A stretch of DNA of 64,000 nt from NCBI GenBank assembly GCA_041666965.1, contig JBAYFX010000001.1:2249-66248 (forward strand). The letters are read 5' to 3'. Position numbers: made by a program. Shown in pieces: positions 27,001 to 36,000 of this stretch (its first letter is position 1; each line of letters begins with the position of its first letter). This DNA comes from Candidatus Shapirobacteria bacterium. Its GTDB lineage: Bacteria > Patescibacteriota > Microgenomatia > UBA12405.

Positions 27001-30000
27001 TCATCTTTATCTTCTTTAATTTCTTTGTTTTTACCCCGAAGTGTCCATGAGGTGGAAATAGCCCGTAGCAGCTGTAATATGTAAGACAAGATCAAACCGA
27101 CAATAAAAGACCCGATTATTACATAAAAAAGAGGAATGCCTGTGATGATTGAGTTTCCTAGATTTACACTAACCGGAGCAAAATTATATTTAGAAATATA
27201 TACCAGTGCCGTACCAATAATCAGAATTAATATCAGTATTAACATGTTTATTTTATAAAGCCCAAGCCCACCAGCCCATTAATAATTAAATAAGCCGCAA
27301 TCAGGTAATTAACAATTTTTGGAAACATCAAAATTAAGACGCCAAAAACTAATGCCGATAGGGGACTAAGTGCTGTAATTGATATATTCATCCTATGCCT
27401 CCTGTTGCTCACCTGAAGCAATCTTAATAACCTTAACAATTCCCCAAGCTACTAAGGCGTAAACAATAATCGCCACTATAGTACCTGGTTCCAGTACCGA
27501 AGTTGTTTCTAACCCCTGGGCGTAACCTTTACTGAAAATCCCATTAAATGGCAAAACCAATATTCCGGTTATATTATAAATTAAGCGAACAAACCCACTC
27601 GCCAGGCTGGCTCCGGTTAGTTGTAACACCAACCTAAAAGCCAATAAAATTTCCATGGCTCCAAAAAAATAATATACCAAATATTCATTTGTTTGAGCGC
27701 TGGTGGCTTTAGTAATTACCGGTGACTTAACCACCGGAGTTCCTCTATTACCCGACGTTATTAATCCATTATTATTTTCTGTCATATATTTTTAAATAAA
27801 TAATTATCTATTCTTTAGCTTCCTGCCAATAAAAATCACTACAATTGAGCCAATTACGGCCACTATCAAGCTCTGAATATTAAATCCGGTAACTCCCGAT
27901 TGGCCTATTGTGCCCATTAAAAGTCCACCTACCACCGAGCCAATAATCCCCAACACTATGTCATAACCGGTATTCTGGTGTCTGTCTGTTTTCATAATCA
28001 CAGTAGCGATCCATCCGGCCAGTGCTCCAAAAATAATCCAAAGTAAAATTCCCATATATATTCCTATTTAATTAATAAAGTTGTACTTATATTTTCATTT
28101 TTTTAATAATTAATTCTGAGGGTAAATAAGCTAAAAGCGCTTTTTCCACCAAGCTAGTCAGTGTCGTGTCTTCCACCAGGGCTTGTGCTTTGGCGTGGGT
28201 TACAACCATATGGTTAATAAACAGCGTGACTCTTTGCTTTTGATTATTAGTAGACATATCAACTAGTTACTAGTGTAGTAGCAGTACAAGCATTACACCG
28301 TAATGTTCCATATCAACTAGCTGTAATCCGGCTAACACAATCCATCCAAGTTACATTACGTTTACGGTGTTCCTGAGTCTATTTGCGTCGCTAGTTTTTC
28401 TAAATCTTCAAACAGAATTGAGTGGTCAACATATTTAATCAGCCCTTTCTTTTCCAGTTTTAACAGTTCAATACTGGCCGTTTCCCGGGCTACGCCAACC
28501 AGGGTGGCAATGTCCGCTTGGGTAAATCGGTGTTTAACAATAATCCCCTTTTTGTGGGGTTCTCCAAAGTGCTTGGCAATATAAATCAAAATTGAAATTA
28601 CCCGGCGGTAGGCGTCGCTAAACACCAGGTGTTCCACCCGGGTCAGTGTTTCCGCATAGTCTTCCAAAAGTTCGCTCATCAGCGCAAAAAGTAGTGATGG
28701 CTTGTCTTTAATAAAACTAACAACTTGCTCCCGTGGGGCACGGCCAACTTCAACCGCCGTTAAAGCTTCAAAAAAATATACATTTGGCGTCCCGTTTATG
28801 GCCCAGACCATTGGAAAATATGAAATTGGCTTGAGAATATGCAGCGACAATTCGTTTCCGGCAGGGGAGATAGTATATTGGCGAACGTACCCCTTAGTCA
28901 GGCAAAAAATTCCCTGCGGGTCGTCGTCAGCCCGTATTAGCATTTCCCCTTTTTTGTAGTCACGCGTAATAAATTGTTGGTAAAAAGTTTCAAATTCTAA
29001 AGTCTTGTTCGCGCCCATTATAAAAGTAAAATATCAAAATATAAGATACAATCCATTGTACAGGAAAAACCTGCCAATATCCAATCAGTCGGTGTTTTTG
29101 GGCAAAATTAATTAGGTAATGCTGAAAATAATTGCCAAATATCGCTAATTACATTTACCTTTTGGTTATTGTCCTTTTTAGTAGTCGAAATAGTTATAAT
29201 TTTTGTTGAGGTCATTTGAGAAACCAAACCGGGACAGAGCAAAATTTTTAGAAAAAAACTCTTGTCAATATTTTCATTCTAGTCAATAAGATTTTATCTC
29301 TATATCTTCTGTCTGCCTCGATTGGCCAATATCAGTATGGCTTACCCGGATTTTATATTCTGTAATCCAGCTCAGATATTTACTGTAATCCTGGTGTCAA
29401 AACATATTCCATCTGGCTTCGGGCTGTGGAACGATTTTAGAATTTCACCAAGACTCAAGACTCCTTAATTTCGGGAGTACTCGAATTAACGGAGTGTAGT
29501 CACATTGTTAATACCTTAGTGAATACTTCAAATCTCTCAGGCTTTCAATGTAGTAGTAAATATTAGTTTATTCATTGTATCAATAATTACGGCAAAAGTT
29601 AAAAATATGACTTGTAATATCTTGCTATATGAACTACTATTCTTAGTATTAGTAGACAGAGTTAATATTTTAACAAGGATACTTAGATATGACTGAACAA
29701 AGAGATACTCCTGAAGGTGAAGTAGATGCTGCACAAAAGTTTACCGTCGCAGAGTTATTAAGCCGTCCATTAGATACGGCAAAATTCGTAGTAGCTATTA
29801 TTCCTCATACATGGACACTTATTGAGGGTTCCTTAACCCAAAATGTTTCAAGGGTTGTCAGCGCCGTTGAGGGAACAGCCAACGCACTTGAATTATTAAG
29901 GGGGGTTAACTCCGATAAAGTTGAGGCGATGCAATCTCGTTTACGGGAAGCTATTGCGATGCACGGTCCCAATACAGAATCTTAAATAATTGCAGTTGCT

Positions 30001-33000: not shown

Positions 33001-36000
33001 TATCGTCATTTAATAATCTATATGCATCTCCATAAACGATTTCAACATTGCCAGGTAGTTGACTTAAGAGGGGTTTAAACTTTGTATCAATTTCAATGGC
33101 AATTACTTCCTTGACACTGGTAGCTATTTTCTGAGTGAGAAAACCTAATCCCGGACCAATTTCTAAAATACGATCAACAGGAGATAGTTGGGCGCATTCA
33201 ATCATTTTGTTTAAAATATCGTCATCAATACAAAAGAATTGGTCTTTGGCAATATCAAGACTATTCTTGGATAAAAAATCTTGAACTTGCTGTAAATAAT
33301 TACTCATGGGCAAATTATACAAAAGTTCGAGTCTATTCTGTGGTGATGCGTAATATGGATAAATAATACGTACGTAAAAGTCAGTGCTCGGACAGTGGAA
33401 CGATTTTAGAACTATTTAATCAATTTTTCCATGTCTATACACCAATCCTCCACTCCACTATAAATCCCGTCAACATAAGTTTTTTCACCTGTGGGCTGAT
33501 AACCTAGATGTTGGTAAAGTTGGTTAGCATGATCATTTTCCTGTGGATTGACGGCTAGACCAATTTTAGAAAAACCTTTTTTTTTAGCTTTCCGCTCACA
33601 TTCTTTTATCAATAATGAACCATATCCTTTACCCCTTTTGTCTTCTTTTGTATATAGATCTTCCATGTCTGGATATTCCGGATGAGTCTCCTTGCCGTTC
33701 CATTTTAATAAAACAAAACTAACTAATTCAAAATTGTCTTCAAGCACTAAAAACTCCACCTCTCCTTTATTTTGCCGATTAAGACGATTAGTTACAGTTT
33801 CCAAATCTAGTGAAGGTTTAATAATTTTGAGTGATTCATAGTCAGCAGGAGTGACATTTCTGATTATCATAAGTAAATTTTACCAAAAGATCGGTAGTTC
33901 GGAAATCGGTCTAGATGCGCGGACAGTGGAACGATTTTAGAACTATTAGCACAGTTTAGAGCTTAGTCAAAAGCATAACGACCTGTTCTCTTAATTCATC
34001 ATCGTTATGTTGTGCATCATGGAGAAGACTCAAGATTTCCTCATCTTTAATTCCGTGAACAAAAAATGCGATAGCTGATTTTCTCCTCAGATGTTGATTT
34101 TCGTCTGTTTGTAATACTCTTCTTAACCCGAATTCTTTACTTTCATCAAAAGGTAATTTAGTTTTTTCTAAAAGGCTGATAGCTATATCTCTTTCATACA
34201 ACACCTCACTGATCAAACCTTCACTAGTCCAATTTATCCACGCTGGATTGTTACTTATTTCTGTAACCCGATCATCAATAGCAGTCCAATCGTTTTCTGT
34301 TGCTTTTTGTATAAACCATTGAGTATCTATTGGAGAATCTATTGTCACAGTTGATTATACAAAAGTTTGTGTCCCATCCTGGGTAATGAGTTATATGGAT
34401 AGATTTCGTGCCTAAAAAAAATGCTCCCCGCCTTGGAGGAAATTAGGAAAGCCGTGAGTTAGAAGTAAGTTTTACAAATCTTCTTCTGAGATAACTTCAA
34501 TCCCGTTTCTCTTTAGCAATTCAGAACACACACCGTCTCTATCAATTAGTTTGCCCGTAAAGGTACCATCATATGTTTGTTTGGAACCACAAGATGGGGA
34601 CCTTGCTTTGAGAATTGCCTTTTTGCATCCATAAAGATTGGCTATTCGCAAAACTTCTTCAGCACCAGTCTGATAGTTGACAGTTACGTCTGTACCATCT
34701 TTAGTAATCACCCTATCGCCGTTTCTCTCTGATGGTGTCCGGGGAGTTGATAGTCCACCCAATTGCTCTGGGCATACTGGAAGTAATTGATTATTCTTCA
34801 ACATAGCTAATACCTTTTCATTTGATTTTGAATTGCCGTCGTAGCGACACTTGCATCCGAGTAGACAGGCACTACACAAAATTGGTGGTTCTGATTTCAT
34901 AGACAGATTATACAAAAGTTCTCCAGTCCAATATGGGATATGTCAAATTTAGGTTCAAATAGCGCTTGCTCGGACAGTGGAACGATTTTAGAACTAGTTC
35001 TTATTGTATTCAATCCCATCCGTTCTAACTAGAATTAATTTTTGGTCTTCTTTGTTTAATACAGCGTAGGCGCAATCTGTAATATCAGCTATTACACTTT
35101 TATTTAGAATGTCTCCAAAGATTACCCAAAATGGCATACCGTGGGTAACAATGCCTATTGTTGAATAATTTAAGGCACCGGTAGCTTCCATAAACGCTTT
35201 ATTTATTCTATCTTCAAAATCCTCTTGAGACTCTGCCCCTTCTATCTGACTTCTGTAATCCTTAAGTTCTTCAACTAATTGTGGATATTTTATTATTGCT
35301 TCGCCTCTGGTCATCCCGGTCAGAATCCCGTTTTTATTTCTTTCCCTTAAATCTATAATTGTTTTTATCTCACCACCTAATTTCGCTTGTAGTATTTTTG
35401 CGGTTTGTTGTGCTCGTTTTAATGGGCTGCAAAAAAGAATCTGTATACCGGAATTACTTAATTTATCAGCTAGTTCGTGTGCCTGAGATACGCCTTTATC
35501 TGACAACTCATCATCATAAGCTCCTCCATATCTATCTTCAATATCTCCAGTTGTTTGTCCGTGTCTAATAAGATAAATTCTCATAAGTACTGTGTGATTT
35601 TATCAAAAGTTCGAGTCCTATCTTGGGTAATGAGTTATATGGATAGATTTCGTACTTGAAATAAGTTGCTCGGGCAGTGGAACGATTTTAGAACTTTAAA
35701 ATTCTCGATTGTCAGGTAATACCGCAAAGCAGTGTTCTTTCGTAAGGGGTAATAAATTAAACATCTTTCCTTTAGGTTCAAGAATTATTTGAATTATGGG
35801 ATTTTTGACTTTTATTCTACCTGGAAATATACTTAGCTCAACAATGCTTCCACAATCATTGACTACTGTGACTCGCTCCTCAAGAACCCTGGCATTGATC
35901 CTTTTTGTTTTGTTTCCCTTTCTTGGTTTTTATCTTGGCTATAAATTTCACGAATCTACTGCTCTCCCCCCCTCTCAAGAACGGATATTAGCATCTTCAC

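Follow-up and report, generated by a model that had tools for sequence, protein, structure and literature searches.

How does a bacterium come to hold a run of unrelated accessory genes that are separated by one and the same short sequence, always in one orientation? The locus lies within a 64,000-nucleotide stretch of Candidatus Shapirobacteria DNA (the window), and the preliminary description of it read the run as an integron-like array of cassettes bounded by 29-nt repeats. We hypothesize instead that the 29-mer is half of a double-stranded attachment site of a large serine recombinase (LSR), and that the window probably holds a recombinase-less tandem stack of nine cassettes.

The eight direct repeats first described are real. 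A scan of the whole 64 kb for the 18-nt core GTGGAACGATTTTAGAAC, allowing at most one mismatch, gives eight matches against an expected 0.11, all on the plus strand (starts at 29426, 30100, 31180, 32418, 33395, 33926, 34977 and 35677) and none outside 29.4–35.7 kb. Start-to-start spacing is 531–1238 nt, in agreement with the 0.5–1.2 kb originally given, and with a position weight matrix (PWM) derived from 88 related sites the eight copies reach 30–49 bits, the next best window match 7.3. Near-identity, as originally claimed, holds for five of the eight, the only sites that match the full 29-mer with at most one mismatch (32408, 33385, 33916, 34967 and 35667); the three left copies keep the core and diverge in their 5' 10 nt. 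Sharing of the 29-mer by these five arms, non-conserved spacer included, points to concerted evolution or local amplification and not to independent imports. Two junction sites with a different type of sequence had been overlooked, and with these B arms added to the eight P arms there are ten junctions (Table 1), so that each segment holds one gene or operon and not one to three; the genes between repeats are unrelated, as stated, and the picture of accessory genes arrayed between directly oriented recombination-type sites is supported. Within the window, the pattern GCTC[GC]-N6-[GT]G[GA]AC-N6-AG[GA]AC is confined to the array, and GC content is 0.35–0.38 in the stack versus 0.40–0.46 in the core flanks.

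Table 1 Features of the stack, in window coordinates
Feature	Coordinates	Strand	Remarks
Whole stack	29416..35694	- (gene strand, site polarity)	10 junction sites, 9 segments; right-hand boundary putative
P-type arm c8	35668..35694	+	GCTCGGGCAGTGGAACGATTTTAGAAC; three boxes, 11-nt spacing
Histidine phosphatase (His_Phos_1), 196 aa	34994..35584	-	cassette gene
P-type arm c7	34968..34994	+	last base overlapped by TAG stop of His_Phos gene
DUF523 / 2-thiouracil desulfurase family, 142 aa	34472..34900	-	cassette gene
B-type arm, variant	34423..34449	+	GCTCCCCGCCTTGGAGGAAATTAGGAA; tRNA-Asn 3'-fragment-like
130-aa protein	33956..34348	-	cassette gene; no Pfam match
P-type arm c6	33917..33943	+	inverted partner at 33896-33913
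GNAT acetyltransferase, 152 aa	33412..33870	-	cassette gene
P-type arm c5	33386..33412	+	last base overlapped by TAG stop of GNAT gene
Promoter box GAACTTTTGTATAAT (extended -10)	33314..33328	-	ATG of RrnaAD gene 6 nt on
rRNA adenine dimethylase family (RrnaAD) methyltransferase, 283 aa	32456..33307	-	cassette gene
P-type arm c4	32409..32435	+	between two convergent gene ends
DUF5320 (65 aa) + DUF134 (94 aa)	31860..32345	+	inverted cassette
B-type arm	31737..31763	+	GCTCCCCGCCTTAGACTCAATTAGGAC; reverse complement of tRNA-Asn T-arm + acceptor 3' strand
150-aa protein	31197..31649	-	cassette gene; no Pfam match
P-type arm c3	31171..31197	+	GTTCGCTTGGTGGAACGATTTTCGAAC; between convergent genes; overlapped by 150-aa gene stop
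Glycoside hydrolase family 130 (GH130), 334 aa	30157..31161	+	inverted cassette
P-type arm c2	30090..30117	+	one-base insertion in spacer
98-aa ORF	29689..29985	+	inverted cassette; no Pfam match
P-type arm c1	29416..29443	+	most degenerate copy, PWM 30 bits

One hypothesis, in keeping with the preliminary description, is that the array is a CALIN, with attC hairpins that act as single strands and an IntI tyrosine recombinase encoded elsewhere. Single-orientation arrays with mostly one gene per cassette, units of 60–110 nt, a few of them good palindromes, and sites abutting stop codons would all fit; repeat ends do fall at minus-strand stops as described, three overlapping the repeat (31197, 33412 and 34994) and three lying 12–22 nt from it (32456, 33956 and 34472). 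However, the folding signal is absent, such that units fold no better than shuffled sequence (z from +1.7 to −2.1) and eight aligned type-A units yield no consensus fold (−0.84 kcal mol−1). A real inverted arm is missing in about 87% of units, an extended left arm being found in ~10 of 78 related units (~13%) versus 2 of 78 in the control, and the supposedly conserved left end ATTATACAAAAGTTCGAG occurs in only four window units (33313, 34354, 34907 and 35597). The boxes found are AGTTC/GAACT, not RYYYAAC/GTTRRRY, and neither the window, as first noted, nor the surroundings of about 50 related arrays contain a tyrosine recombinase motif or Pfam match. The imperfect inverted symmetry first described is better read as the dyad of a double-stranded, attP-like serine-recombinase site; at c6 the arm and its inverted partner are, to judge from their symmetry, a compact attP-like junction. 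The leader at 29019–29420, proposed as the attI/promoter side, is at the wrong end, because the cassette genes, like the sites, are directed away from the 35.7-kb end, the anchoring tRNA of related loci always lies on the 35.7-kb (upstream) side, and the 29.4-kb copy is the most decayed. The proximal end of the stack is at 35.7 kb and the distal end at 29.4 kb. Together with the promoter and tRNA evidence given below, the fold, box and recombinase results largely refute an integron, which we consider highly improbable.

Genome and metagenome scans returned 48 non-redundant loci with sites in Patescibacteria, of which 31 have at least two sites, and P and B arms are interleaved in the arrays of L072 and L077. 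The make-up of the junction units is conserved across genera: each has an arm, an inner segment that belongs to one of three types and, 6–12 nt before the start codon, a promoter box that does not vary. In the window, boxes equivalent to that of the RrnaAD gene lie at 33877–33888, 34354–34368, 34907–34921 and 35597–35608, and GAACTTTTGTATAAT does not occur outside the array. Every cassette on the minus strand carries a promoter of its own, and the inverted DUF5320 + DUF134 cassette carries a TTGACA-N16-TATTAT promoter and an AGGAGG ribosome-binding site; promoters borne by the cassettes themselves argue against a CALIN.

Could the units then have spread by transposition, as a dispersed intergenic repeat (MITE, REP, ERIC or Correia) or a terminator-plus-promoter module without any part in gene movement? 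Lengths of ~100 nt, imperfect terminal inverted repeats, inner subfamilies and an outward-facing promoter are compatible with this, and compact units would give a hairpin followed by a T-run. It is nevertheless quite improbable, given that all 10 window copies lie within 6.3 kb and none in the other 57.7 kb, that orientation is uniform in 29 of the 31 arrays regardless of the orientation of neighbouring genes, that a terminator-like fold is absent at 9 of the 10 window junctions, and that at two sites, where the genes on both sides converge, a promoter would have no gene to transcribe. The periodic spacing of the three direct boxes, at 11 nt, and the Crp/Fnr-family gene that adjoins the array (28362–29018) would suit operators through which an OmpR/PhoB-type regulator, or the Crp/Fnr neighbour, controls an accessory regulon. 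However, sites and promoters are anywhere from about 12 to 90 nt apart, the genes on either side of c3 and c4 converge on them, no regulator gene recurs beside the related arrays, and the end box tracks a tRNA 3' end; a genome-wide transcription-factor site is excluded by the confinement of the repeat to one part of the 64 kb, and we hold the operator reading to be extremely improbable.

The relationship to tRNA genes runs through the whole family. In all eight site-bearing loci whose fetched DNA had a tRNA beside the sites, this was tRNA-Asn(gtt) or tRNA-Gln, located upstream of them with respect to the gene strand. When L060 and L056 are aligned, they share a homologous cassette; ahead of it, one locus has a B arm and the other a genuine 3' end of tRNA-Asn. 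Among the Asn-linked arms listed, ...GAGC comes after the 18-mer, and GGGGAGC is the end of tRNA-Asn; arms of Gln-linked arrays run to ...[TA]AAC in seven of eight cases, and tRNA-Gln ends GGGGTAAC. At the level of sequence, the last box of the 29-mer is shown to covary with the anchoring tRNA, whose 3' end it matches (GAGC with tRNA-Asn, TAAC with tRNA-Gln); this covariation argues further against attC sites. In the window the arms are Asn-type, six with GAGC and two degenerate (GCGC at 33943 and GAAC at 31197), and on the gene strand arm c8 reads AGTTCTAAAATCGTTCCAC-TGCC-CGAGCA. The span between outer GTTC and crossover box measures 18 nt in each of the two tRNAs, compared with 23 nt in the arms. 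The outer (zinc-ribbon-domain) motif of an LSR attP half-site lies 5 bp further out than in attB, and we read the 23- versus 18-nt geometry as this same feature.

An LSR is present in several related loci. The gene at L038:599-2176 encodes Resolvase, Recombinase and Zn_ribbon_recom domains, with homologues 51–73% identical. LSR genes overlap the tRNA-Asn 3' end in L038, L086, L090 and L092; those of L089 and L091 directly adjoin a B fragment. Elements are 8.4–10 kb long, and in L038, L086, L089 and L092 a P arm, oriented as predicted, forms the far end, a link whose basis is 4–5 loci. In L038 and L089 the end arm is followed by a hairpin and T-run resembling the region downstream of tRNA-Asn in L045. 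The L089 element lies within a stack of single-gene cassettes, and in L092 two elements are stacked across a P arm. The window contains neither an LSR nor any other recombinase, and its 64 kb hold no tRNA-Asn; the window copy is therefore an orphan stack.

The model that we propose is as follows. The 29-mer would be an attP-type P arm (gene strand A-GTTC-TAAAATC-GTTCCAC) joined to a crossover box (CGAGCA), and would come from a widespread patescibacterial family of integrative elements, whose LSR inserts them at the 3' end of tRNA-Asn or, in some lineages, of tRNA-Gln. A cassette extends from one crossover box to the next and comprises, on the gene strand, an inner segment, the extended −10 promoter TTTTGTATAAT, one gene and a P arm abutting the stop codon; with TTTTGTATAAT only 6–12 nt ahead of the start codon, the transcript would be nearly leaderless. 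Eight junctions have the order P, crossover, next cassette. In the other two, P is replaced by B, a copy of a 3' fragment of tRNA-Asn. The stack may have grown by serial site-specific integration, with the newest cassettes at the 35.7-kb end and catalysis supplied in trans by the LSR of helper elements of about 9 kb, and the window copy would have lost its tRNA anchor or never had one. To our knowledge, canonical LSRs recombine only attP with attB, a rule that alone leaves the piling-up of P-crossover-P' junctions unexplained, and a clear P'-type half-site was not seen in the type A inner segments.

An alternative hypothesis accepts the LSR/tRNA-Asn att sites as real but regards single-gene cassettes as deletion leftovers of ~9 kb elements and the repeats as scars. 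Most related arrays have no LSR within 4–10 kb, the three distal window sites are decayed, and full-size elements stack in tandem (L092), all of which would agree with such relics. The searches for mobility agree with relics too, and speak against our model: the presence/absence differences between strains that the preliminary description proposed to look for were not found, near-identical locus pairs differing only by a 29-nt deletion, and no circular cassette or empty site was detected. However, random deletion would not repeatedly yield the junction units conserved across genera, and the sites of related loci keep closely to a one-gene interval (median 787 nt). Moreover, a gene can recur together with its inner segment while the arms and neighbours around it change: L063, L077 and L079 also contain the 130-aa gene and the segment upstream of it, with other neighbours and other upstream arms, a recurrence that is, on these comparisons, cassette mosaicism. 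For these reasons we judge the relic hypothesis unlikely, although it deserves some weight.

The proposed LSR-built stack combines features of several known systems. It resembles integrons (sedentary chromosomal ones with uniform attC arrays, such as VCR, and CALINs) in its directional, mostly single-gene accessory cassettes, in sites set hard against the stop codon and similar within an array, and in typical cassette functions (acetyltransferase, methyltransferase, phosphotransferase, NUDIX), but lacks the attC hairpin, R/L box consensus, IntI and attI/Pc, has promoters within the cassettes, and has as its site a double-stranded half-site of LSR type, akin to the end of a tRNA. Serine integrases such as those of A118/LI, phiC31 and Bxb1 act on dyad-symmetric ~50-bp sites, with an attP half-site 5 bp longer than that of attB and polarity set by a short central crossover sequence common to both partners. 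Dyad symmetry, the longer attP half-site and crossover-set polarity are shared here, whereas those integrases place one prophage per site and stacks of attP-like internal junctions fall outside their canonical reaction scheme. SCCmec/SCC composite islands are moved by the large serine recombinases CcrAB/CcrC at a site in the 3' end of the conserved gene rlmH, and form tandem elements of 3–60 kb bounded by direct repeats, many without their own recombinase and served in trans. The recombinase type, the conserved-gene 3' end, the tandem stacking between direct repeats and the recombinase-less units are alike; the target here is a tRNA 3' end in Patescibacteria, and the units are single genes of 0.5–1.2 kb with a ~100-nt conserved junction and built-in promoter. 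In the streamlined genome of Prochlorococcus, successive integrations of tycheposons at one tRNA push older elements outward and leave scattered partial tRNA copies, the elements being multi-gene and using mostly tyrosine recombinases and in a minority LSRs (10.1101/2020.12.28.424599). Streamlining, tRNA-anchored serial integration and partial tRNA copies recur here, but what is repeated is mostly an attP-type arm, not a piece of tRNA, and each unit consists of one gene with its own promoter. If the model is correct, it would represent integron-like gene capture in a group of tiny-genome bacteria, the Shapirobacteria, in which none has been described.

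The repeats are set apart sharply from the remainder of the window. Against a weight matrix derived from 88 related sites the eight copies reach 30–49 bits, compared with 7.3 bits at the next best window position. The 18-nt core of the repeat, GTGGAACGATTTTAGAAC, occurs eight times in the 64-kb scan at up to one mismatch, every time on the plus strand and against 0.11 expected, and no further copies are found in the remainder of the 64 kb, which bears out the preliminary description of eight repeats in one orientation. Its statement that the copies are near-identical holds for five of them, the only window sites that match the full 29-mer at up to one mismatch, but not for the three left copies, which retain the core and differ over the initial 10 nt. 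A second class of site, beginning with TGCTCCCCGCCTTRGA, occurs twice in the same orientation as the first (Table), such that there are ten junctions in total with one gene or one operon per segment. Common to both classes are three boxes at 11-nt spacing, GCTC[GC]-N6-[GT]G[GA]AC-N6-AG[GA]AC, a pattern that matches 8/10 junctions and no other window position. The window is part of a Candidatus Shapirobacteria MAG, and the GC content of the array is 0.35–0.38, below that of the core flanks. Separately, 49 nt upstream of the second arm (c2) is AAAAACGATTTTAAAACT, a degenerate copy of the arm in direct orientation that may be left over from a lost cassette.

Features of the window and their coordinates
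Feature	Position	Strand	Remark
18-nt core, c1	29426	+	start; ≤1 mismatch
18-nt core, c2	30100	+	start; ≤1 mismatch
18-nt core, c3	31180	+	start; ≤1 mismatch
18-nt core, c4	32418	+	start; ≤1 mismatch
18-nt core, c5	33395	+	start; ≤1 mismatch
18-nt core, c6	33926	+	start; ≤1 mismatch
18-nt core, c7	34977	+	start; ≤1 mismatch
18-nt core, c8	35677	+	start; ≤1 mismatch
Class-2 site	31737	+	
Class-2 site	34423	+	
Degenerate arm copy	30051-30076		
Promoter and ribosome-binding site, DUF5320/DUF134 cassette	31788-31859		
APH-family phosphotransferase gene	11462-12451	-	329 aa
Second APH-family gene	48400-49326		
RecB/RNase-H-fold nuclease	37096-38604		
UvrD-like helicase	38601-40274		
Lamin-tail-domain protein	within 36686-46006		
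LexA	40809-41411		
Eco57I-type restriction-modification pair	41401-46006		
tRNA-Pro(ggg)	60120-60194	-	
Repeat of tRNA-Pro(ggg) 3' end	60061-60074		

As had been proposed, the repeats separate unrelated accessory genes: Pfam places those lying between them in unrelated families (GH130, DUF5320 and DUF134, an RrnaAD-type methyltransferase, a GNAT acetyltransferase, DUF523 and a histidine phosphatase), and three further ORFs carry no Pfam family. The stop codons of the six minus-strand genes overlap the repeat end or lie at most 22 nt from it. Each minus-strand start codon is preceded at 6–12 nt by an extended -10 box, which reads TTTTGTATAAT, TTTTGATAAAAT or TTTTGGTAAAAT, and a window scan finds GAACTTTTGTATAAT confined to the array. 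In the inverted DUF5320/DUF134 cassette the promoter is instead a near-consensus TTGACA-N16-TATTAT, accompanied by an AGGAGG ribosome-binding site, whereas its neighbors begin at the usual short distance past the extended -10 box; this difference in promoter type suggests that the cassette is of different origin.

Is the array an integron, as the preliminary description had supposed from its directional succession of single-gene segments? That succession is indeed present, and the absence of a visible IntI is confirmed, since neither a Pfam search of the 17–64-kb part, which covered every ORF of 70 aa or more, nor motif scans reveal a recombinase of any kind. A CALIN is by definition an integron without IntI, and IntI is present in the integron family. 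The search for intI or another tyrosine recombinase beside related arrays was also negative, as an integrase is absent from the families listed in a Pfam tally of 146 flanking ORFs and a scan of all loci finds no tyrosine recombinase box II/HxxR motif. The attC/VCR-type hairpin is rejected. DNA folding of five window units on both strands gives z values from +1.67 to -2.12, with 6–196 of 200 shuffles folding equally well, and RNAalifold on eight aligned type-A units (named for their inner segment, the stretch between crossover box and cassette promoter) returns -0.84 kcal/mol with four pairs and no consensus structure. An inverted 15-mer arm (at most four mismatches) is found in 10/78 non-redundant related units and in 2/78 in the control region, and a full or partial inverted arm was therefore discarded as a general feature on account of its rarity. 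The inverted-repeat ends had been taken as attC architecture; they read AGTTC...GAACT, with GTT 5' and AAC 3' whichever strand is read, which is the reverse of attC, and the end boxes match neither the R'' RYYYAAC nor the R' GTTRRRY core site. Finally, the integron criterion of promoterless cassettes is contradicted by the conserved box before each minus-strand start. The array is functionally integron-like but fails integron membership on hairpin, core sites, IntI and promoterless cassettes.

An 18-mer scan of one genome per species together with a metagenome collection shows that the repeat recurs in numerous contigs of low GC, which carry Shapirobacteria or Patescibacteria labels or are mis-binned. 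After removal of duplicates and chance matches, 48 loci carry sites and 31 of them at least two; the chance matches in other phyla do not have the GCTC box. A single site orientation is seen in 29 of the 31 multi-site loci, at a median spacing of 787 nt, and the two site classes interleave within arrays (eight sites in L072, nine in L077, the latter on an 836-kb contig). Dispersed intergenic repeats of the MITE, REP, ERIC or Correia kind are rejected on this uniformity and on the window itself, in which 10/10 junction copies are confined to 6.3 kb of the 64 kb and to the plus strand. The likeness of the array unit to Neisseria Correia elements is presumably a coincidence. A CRISPR array is likewise rejected, as the spacing is 0.5–1.2 kb and encloses whole genes, compared with CRISPR spacers of 25–50 nt, and no cas domains were seen among the Pfam matches of window ORFs. 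Xer/dif-like sites, DNA uptake sequences, ECF-sigma promoters and CRISPR repeats were dropped on sequence and distribution, Rfam at gathering and E-value thresholds returns only chance-level matches to known RNA families in the array, and a viral origin was set aside because the single IMG/VR match is probably due to chance.

The genes in related arrays are again accessory (NUDIX, methyltransferases, GNAT, APH, His_Phos, Fic, peptidase S51), and all-against-all clustering of 438 ORFs and a Pfam tally reveal no recurrent gene family beside the arrays. The genes beside the L077 array that had seemed to be recombinase candidates encode a secreted protein and an HTH protein. The loci compared yielded no strain-level cassette polymorphism, excised circle or empty site, so the presence/absence differences that had been proposed as a check were not found among them. 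Three apparent cases were discarded: L028 and L063 are overlapping pieces of one array, L007 and L074 differ solely by a 29-nt deletion, and L027 and L037 diverge at a point off any site. An orthologue of the PsbP-like gene that flanks the window array (57% identity) occurs without an array. What the loci do provide is a mosaic, in which a 130-aa gene, its upstream inner segment and its downstream P arm (see below) are common to the window and L063, and the upstream arms and neighbors differ.

A fundamental question is what the repeats are, and the flanking tRNA genes provide a lead. In 8/8 loci with an adjoining tRNA in the fetched DNA, the tRNA that ARAGORN identifies is tRNA-Asn(gtt) or tRNA-Gln, and on the gene strand it lies upstream of the sites. 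The box after the 18-mer ends in GAGC in the Asn-linked arms listed, where tRNA-Asn ends in GGGGAGC, and in [TA]AAC in 7/8 Gln-linked arms, where tRNA-Gln ends in GGGGTAAC; window arms are of the Asn type, with GAGC in six and a degenerate box in two. Alignment of a cassette shared by L060 and L056 extends homology over gene, promoter and inner segment; beyond these, L060 has a class-2 site where L056 has a genuine tRNA-Asn 3' end. For this reason, the alignment indicates that the class-2 site (B arm) is a copied T-arm and acceptor strand of tRNA-Asn. The distance from the outer GTTC to the end box (GAGC or TAAC) is 23 nt in the arms compared with 18 nt in both tRNA-Asn and tRNA-Gln. In serine integrases the outer motif for the zinc-ribbon domain lies 5 bp farther from the crossover in attP than in attB, and on this geometry the 29-mer resembles the crossover region together with a half-site of attP type (the P arm).

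The window array has B fragments and no tRNA-Asn: neither an adjoining tRNA or tmRNA nor the 5' half of tRNA-Asn is found there. In L088 (~1480-1800, reverse strand), the 5' half of tRNA-Asn breaks off within the anticodon loop, and a long insert of structured appearance comes next. Group I introns have been reported in tRNA-Asn of Patescibacteria (PMC13011429), and the insert is consistent with one. As this gene escapes detection by ARAGORN, the count of tRNA anchors may be too low. In L045 (55-880), the P arm is followed by the sequence found past tRNA-Asn, TAATCAAAAA, in reverse complement, and the ORF in between is inverted, which may reflect an inversion between att half-sites.

Which enzyme would act on such sites? 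In L038, a 526-aa gene overlaps at its end with the tRNA-Asn 3' end, and its Resolvase, Recombinase and zinc-ribbon domains identify the product as a large serine recombinase (LSR). At a distance of 8.4 kb is a perfect P arm, oriented as predicted and followed by a hairpin and T-run that are apparently the native tRNA terminator. About 140 nt past this distal arm, at 9165-9183, is a second 3' fragment of tRNA-Asn, GAATCCCTAGCGGAGGAGC, by its sequence a further displaced attB copy. A search with the LSR family returned 1765 matches below 1e-20 in the Candidate Phyla Radiation, with source names that include Shapirobacteria, Levybacteria, WWE3, Minisyncoccia and Parcubacteria. Five further contexts were examined (L086, L089, L090, L091 and L092). 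The LSR gene runs over the 3' end of tRNA-Asn in L086, L090 and L092 and abuts a B fragment in L089 and L091, and a P arm marks the far element end, 9–10 kb off, in L086, L089 and L092. In L038, L086, L089, L090 and L092 the LSR gene sits at the element end by the att site, whereas the window is without a recombinase. In L092, a P arm separates two stacked LSR elements. In L089, an LSR element bounded by a B fragment and a P arm lies within a stack that also holds single-gene cassettes, the junctions of which are of the types seen in the window, and the sequence after its P arm (TAATCAAAAA plus a hairpin) matches that past an unoccupied tRNA-Asn in L045.

The ~9-kb LSR elements (L086 and L089-L092) share DUF5659, a small HTH_17/MerR-type protein that is excisionase-like, HTH_3 and proteins of 261–277 aa; that of L089 additionally encodes an FtsK/SpoIIIE-like protein. 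A similar FtsK-like/HTH module lies directly upstream of the cassette array in L077 (1183-6334).

Taken on sequence comparison, it is fairly probable that the repeats are LSR/tRNA-type attachment sites that mark a stack made by site-specific integration. Read on the gene strand, each window junction would comprise a stop codon, a P arm (or B fragment), the crossover box GAGCA, and then the next cassette's inner segment and promoter. With crossover within GAGC, a cassette would consist of inner segment, promoter, gene and P arm, which matches the mosaic of the 130-aa gene. The unit of ~100 bp in the preliminary description would then be the joint of two cassettes, and its weak inverted symmetry the dyad symmetry of an attP-like double-stranded site. 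This symmetry is fully visible in compact junctions only, among them 33896-33943 of the window and those of L016, L027, L033 and L036. One rival is that the repeats are scars of full-size elements after deletion. This is the less probable reading: the junction is conserved and the promoter stands at a fixed distance from the start codon, both of which argue for cassettes as units.

Under serial integration, an LSR provided in trans by the ~9-kb helper elements would insert promoter-bearing cassettes, each with an attP-type arm, either at the tRNA-Asn or tRNA-Gln 3' end or at copies of tRNA fragments within the stack. With neither an LSR nor tRNA-Asn in the window, its stack would be an orphan. 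Polarity would place the upstream end at 35.7 kb, with new cassettes entering there. The five sites closest to this end have a near-identical 29-mer, four being identical across the 27-nt three-box site, and the matrix scores of the three farthest fall progressively (41.5, 37.9 and 30.4), a gradient that fits insertion at the 35.7-kb end. Insertion at the upstream end is also described for tRNA-anchored islands (10.1101/2020.12.28.424599). The five arms at 32408-35695 share the same or nearly the same 29-mer including the spacer TGTC; the spacer differs in other genomes (CCAG, TCAG, CTTC and others), and the cassettes and inner segments that separate the five are unrelated. The shared spacer may point to homogenisation between the arms of this array or to a local pool of cassettes. 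Canonical serine integrases recombine attP with attB only, a rule that does not account for the accumulating P-crossover-P' junctions. No half-site is evident in type-A inner segments, and no LSR-type P' sequence is found at the window array.

Other parts of the window merit brief description. The 329-aa APH-family gene lies amid a run of plus-strand genes that looks like a putative ribosomal-protein/secY-type operon, and a second gene of this family is also present (Table). Low GC extends to the right of the array (36686-46006) over what looks like a defence island, and no att-like feature was seen at its right-hand boundary near 46 kb. An exact second copy of the final 14 nt of tRNA-Pro(ggg), CCAGTATCCCCGAC, is found 46 nt downstream of this minus-strand gene. 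The copy resembles a scar left by a further integration or excision event at the 3' end of a tRNA, and its sequence is unrelated to that of the array sites.

Closest in mechanism are the SCC islands, LSR-built stacks at the 3' end of a conserved gene, and tycheposons, which are tRNA-anchored accretion islands. Unlike either, the window array consists of single-gene units that include a promoter, and its main repeat is the attP-type arm. Its function parallels that of integrons and SCC islands, with a different chemistry and a promoter for each cassette. Literature text searches returned no paper with these motifs and none tying integrons or serine recombinases to such Patescibacteria arrays.

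The Candidate Phyla Radiation (Patescibacteria) has very small genomes, and how it maintains a flexible gene pool is poorly understood. More tentatively, and as a possibility somewhat short of likely, we hypothesize that Patescibacteria have an integron-like gene-capture platform of their own, based on serine-recombinase chemistry, with single-gene cassettes at tRNA-Asn or tRNA-Gln, an LSR acting in trans and a shared gene pool. The three-box motif is simple and searchable, so flexible islands could be mapped in Patescibacteria MAGs; natural LSR/att pairs could become genetic tools for organisms that are very hard to manipulate, and the arrays offer a testable case of how LSR sites might permit repeated stacking. 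If the model is true, single accessory genes (acetyltransferases, rRNA and other methyltransferases, aminoglycoside-type phosphotransferases, NUDIX hydrolases and phosphatases) would be stacked behind a tRNA gene via serine-recombinase attachment sites, and would form an exchangeable accessory-gene pool common to many small-genome candidate phyla.
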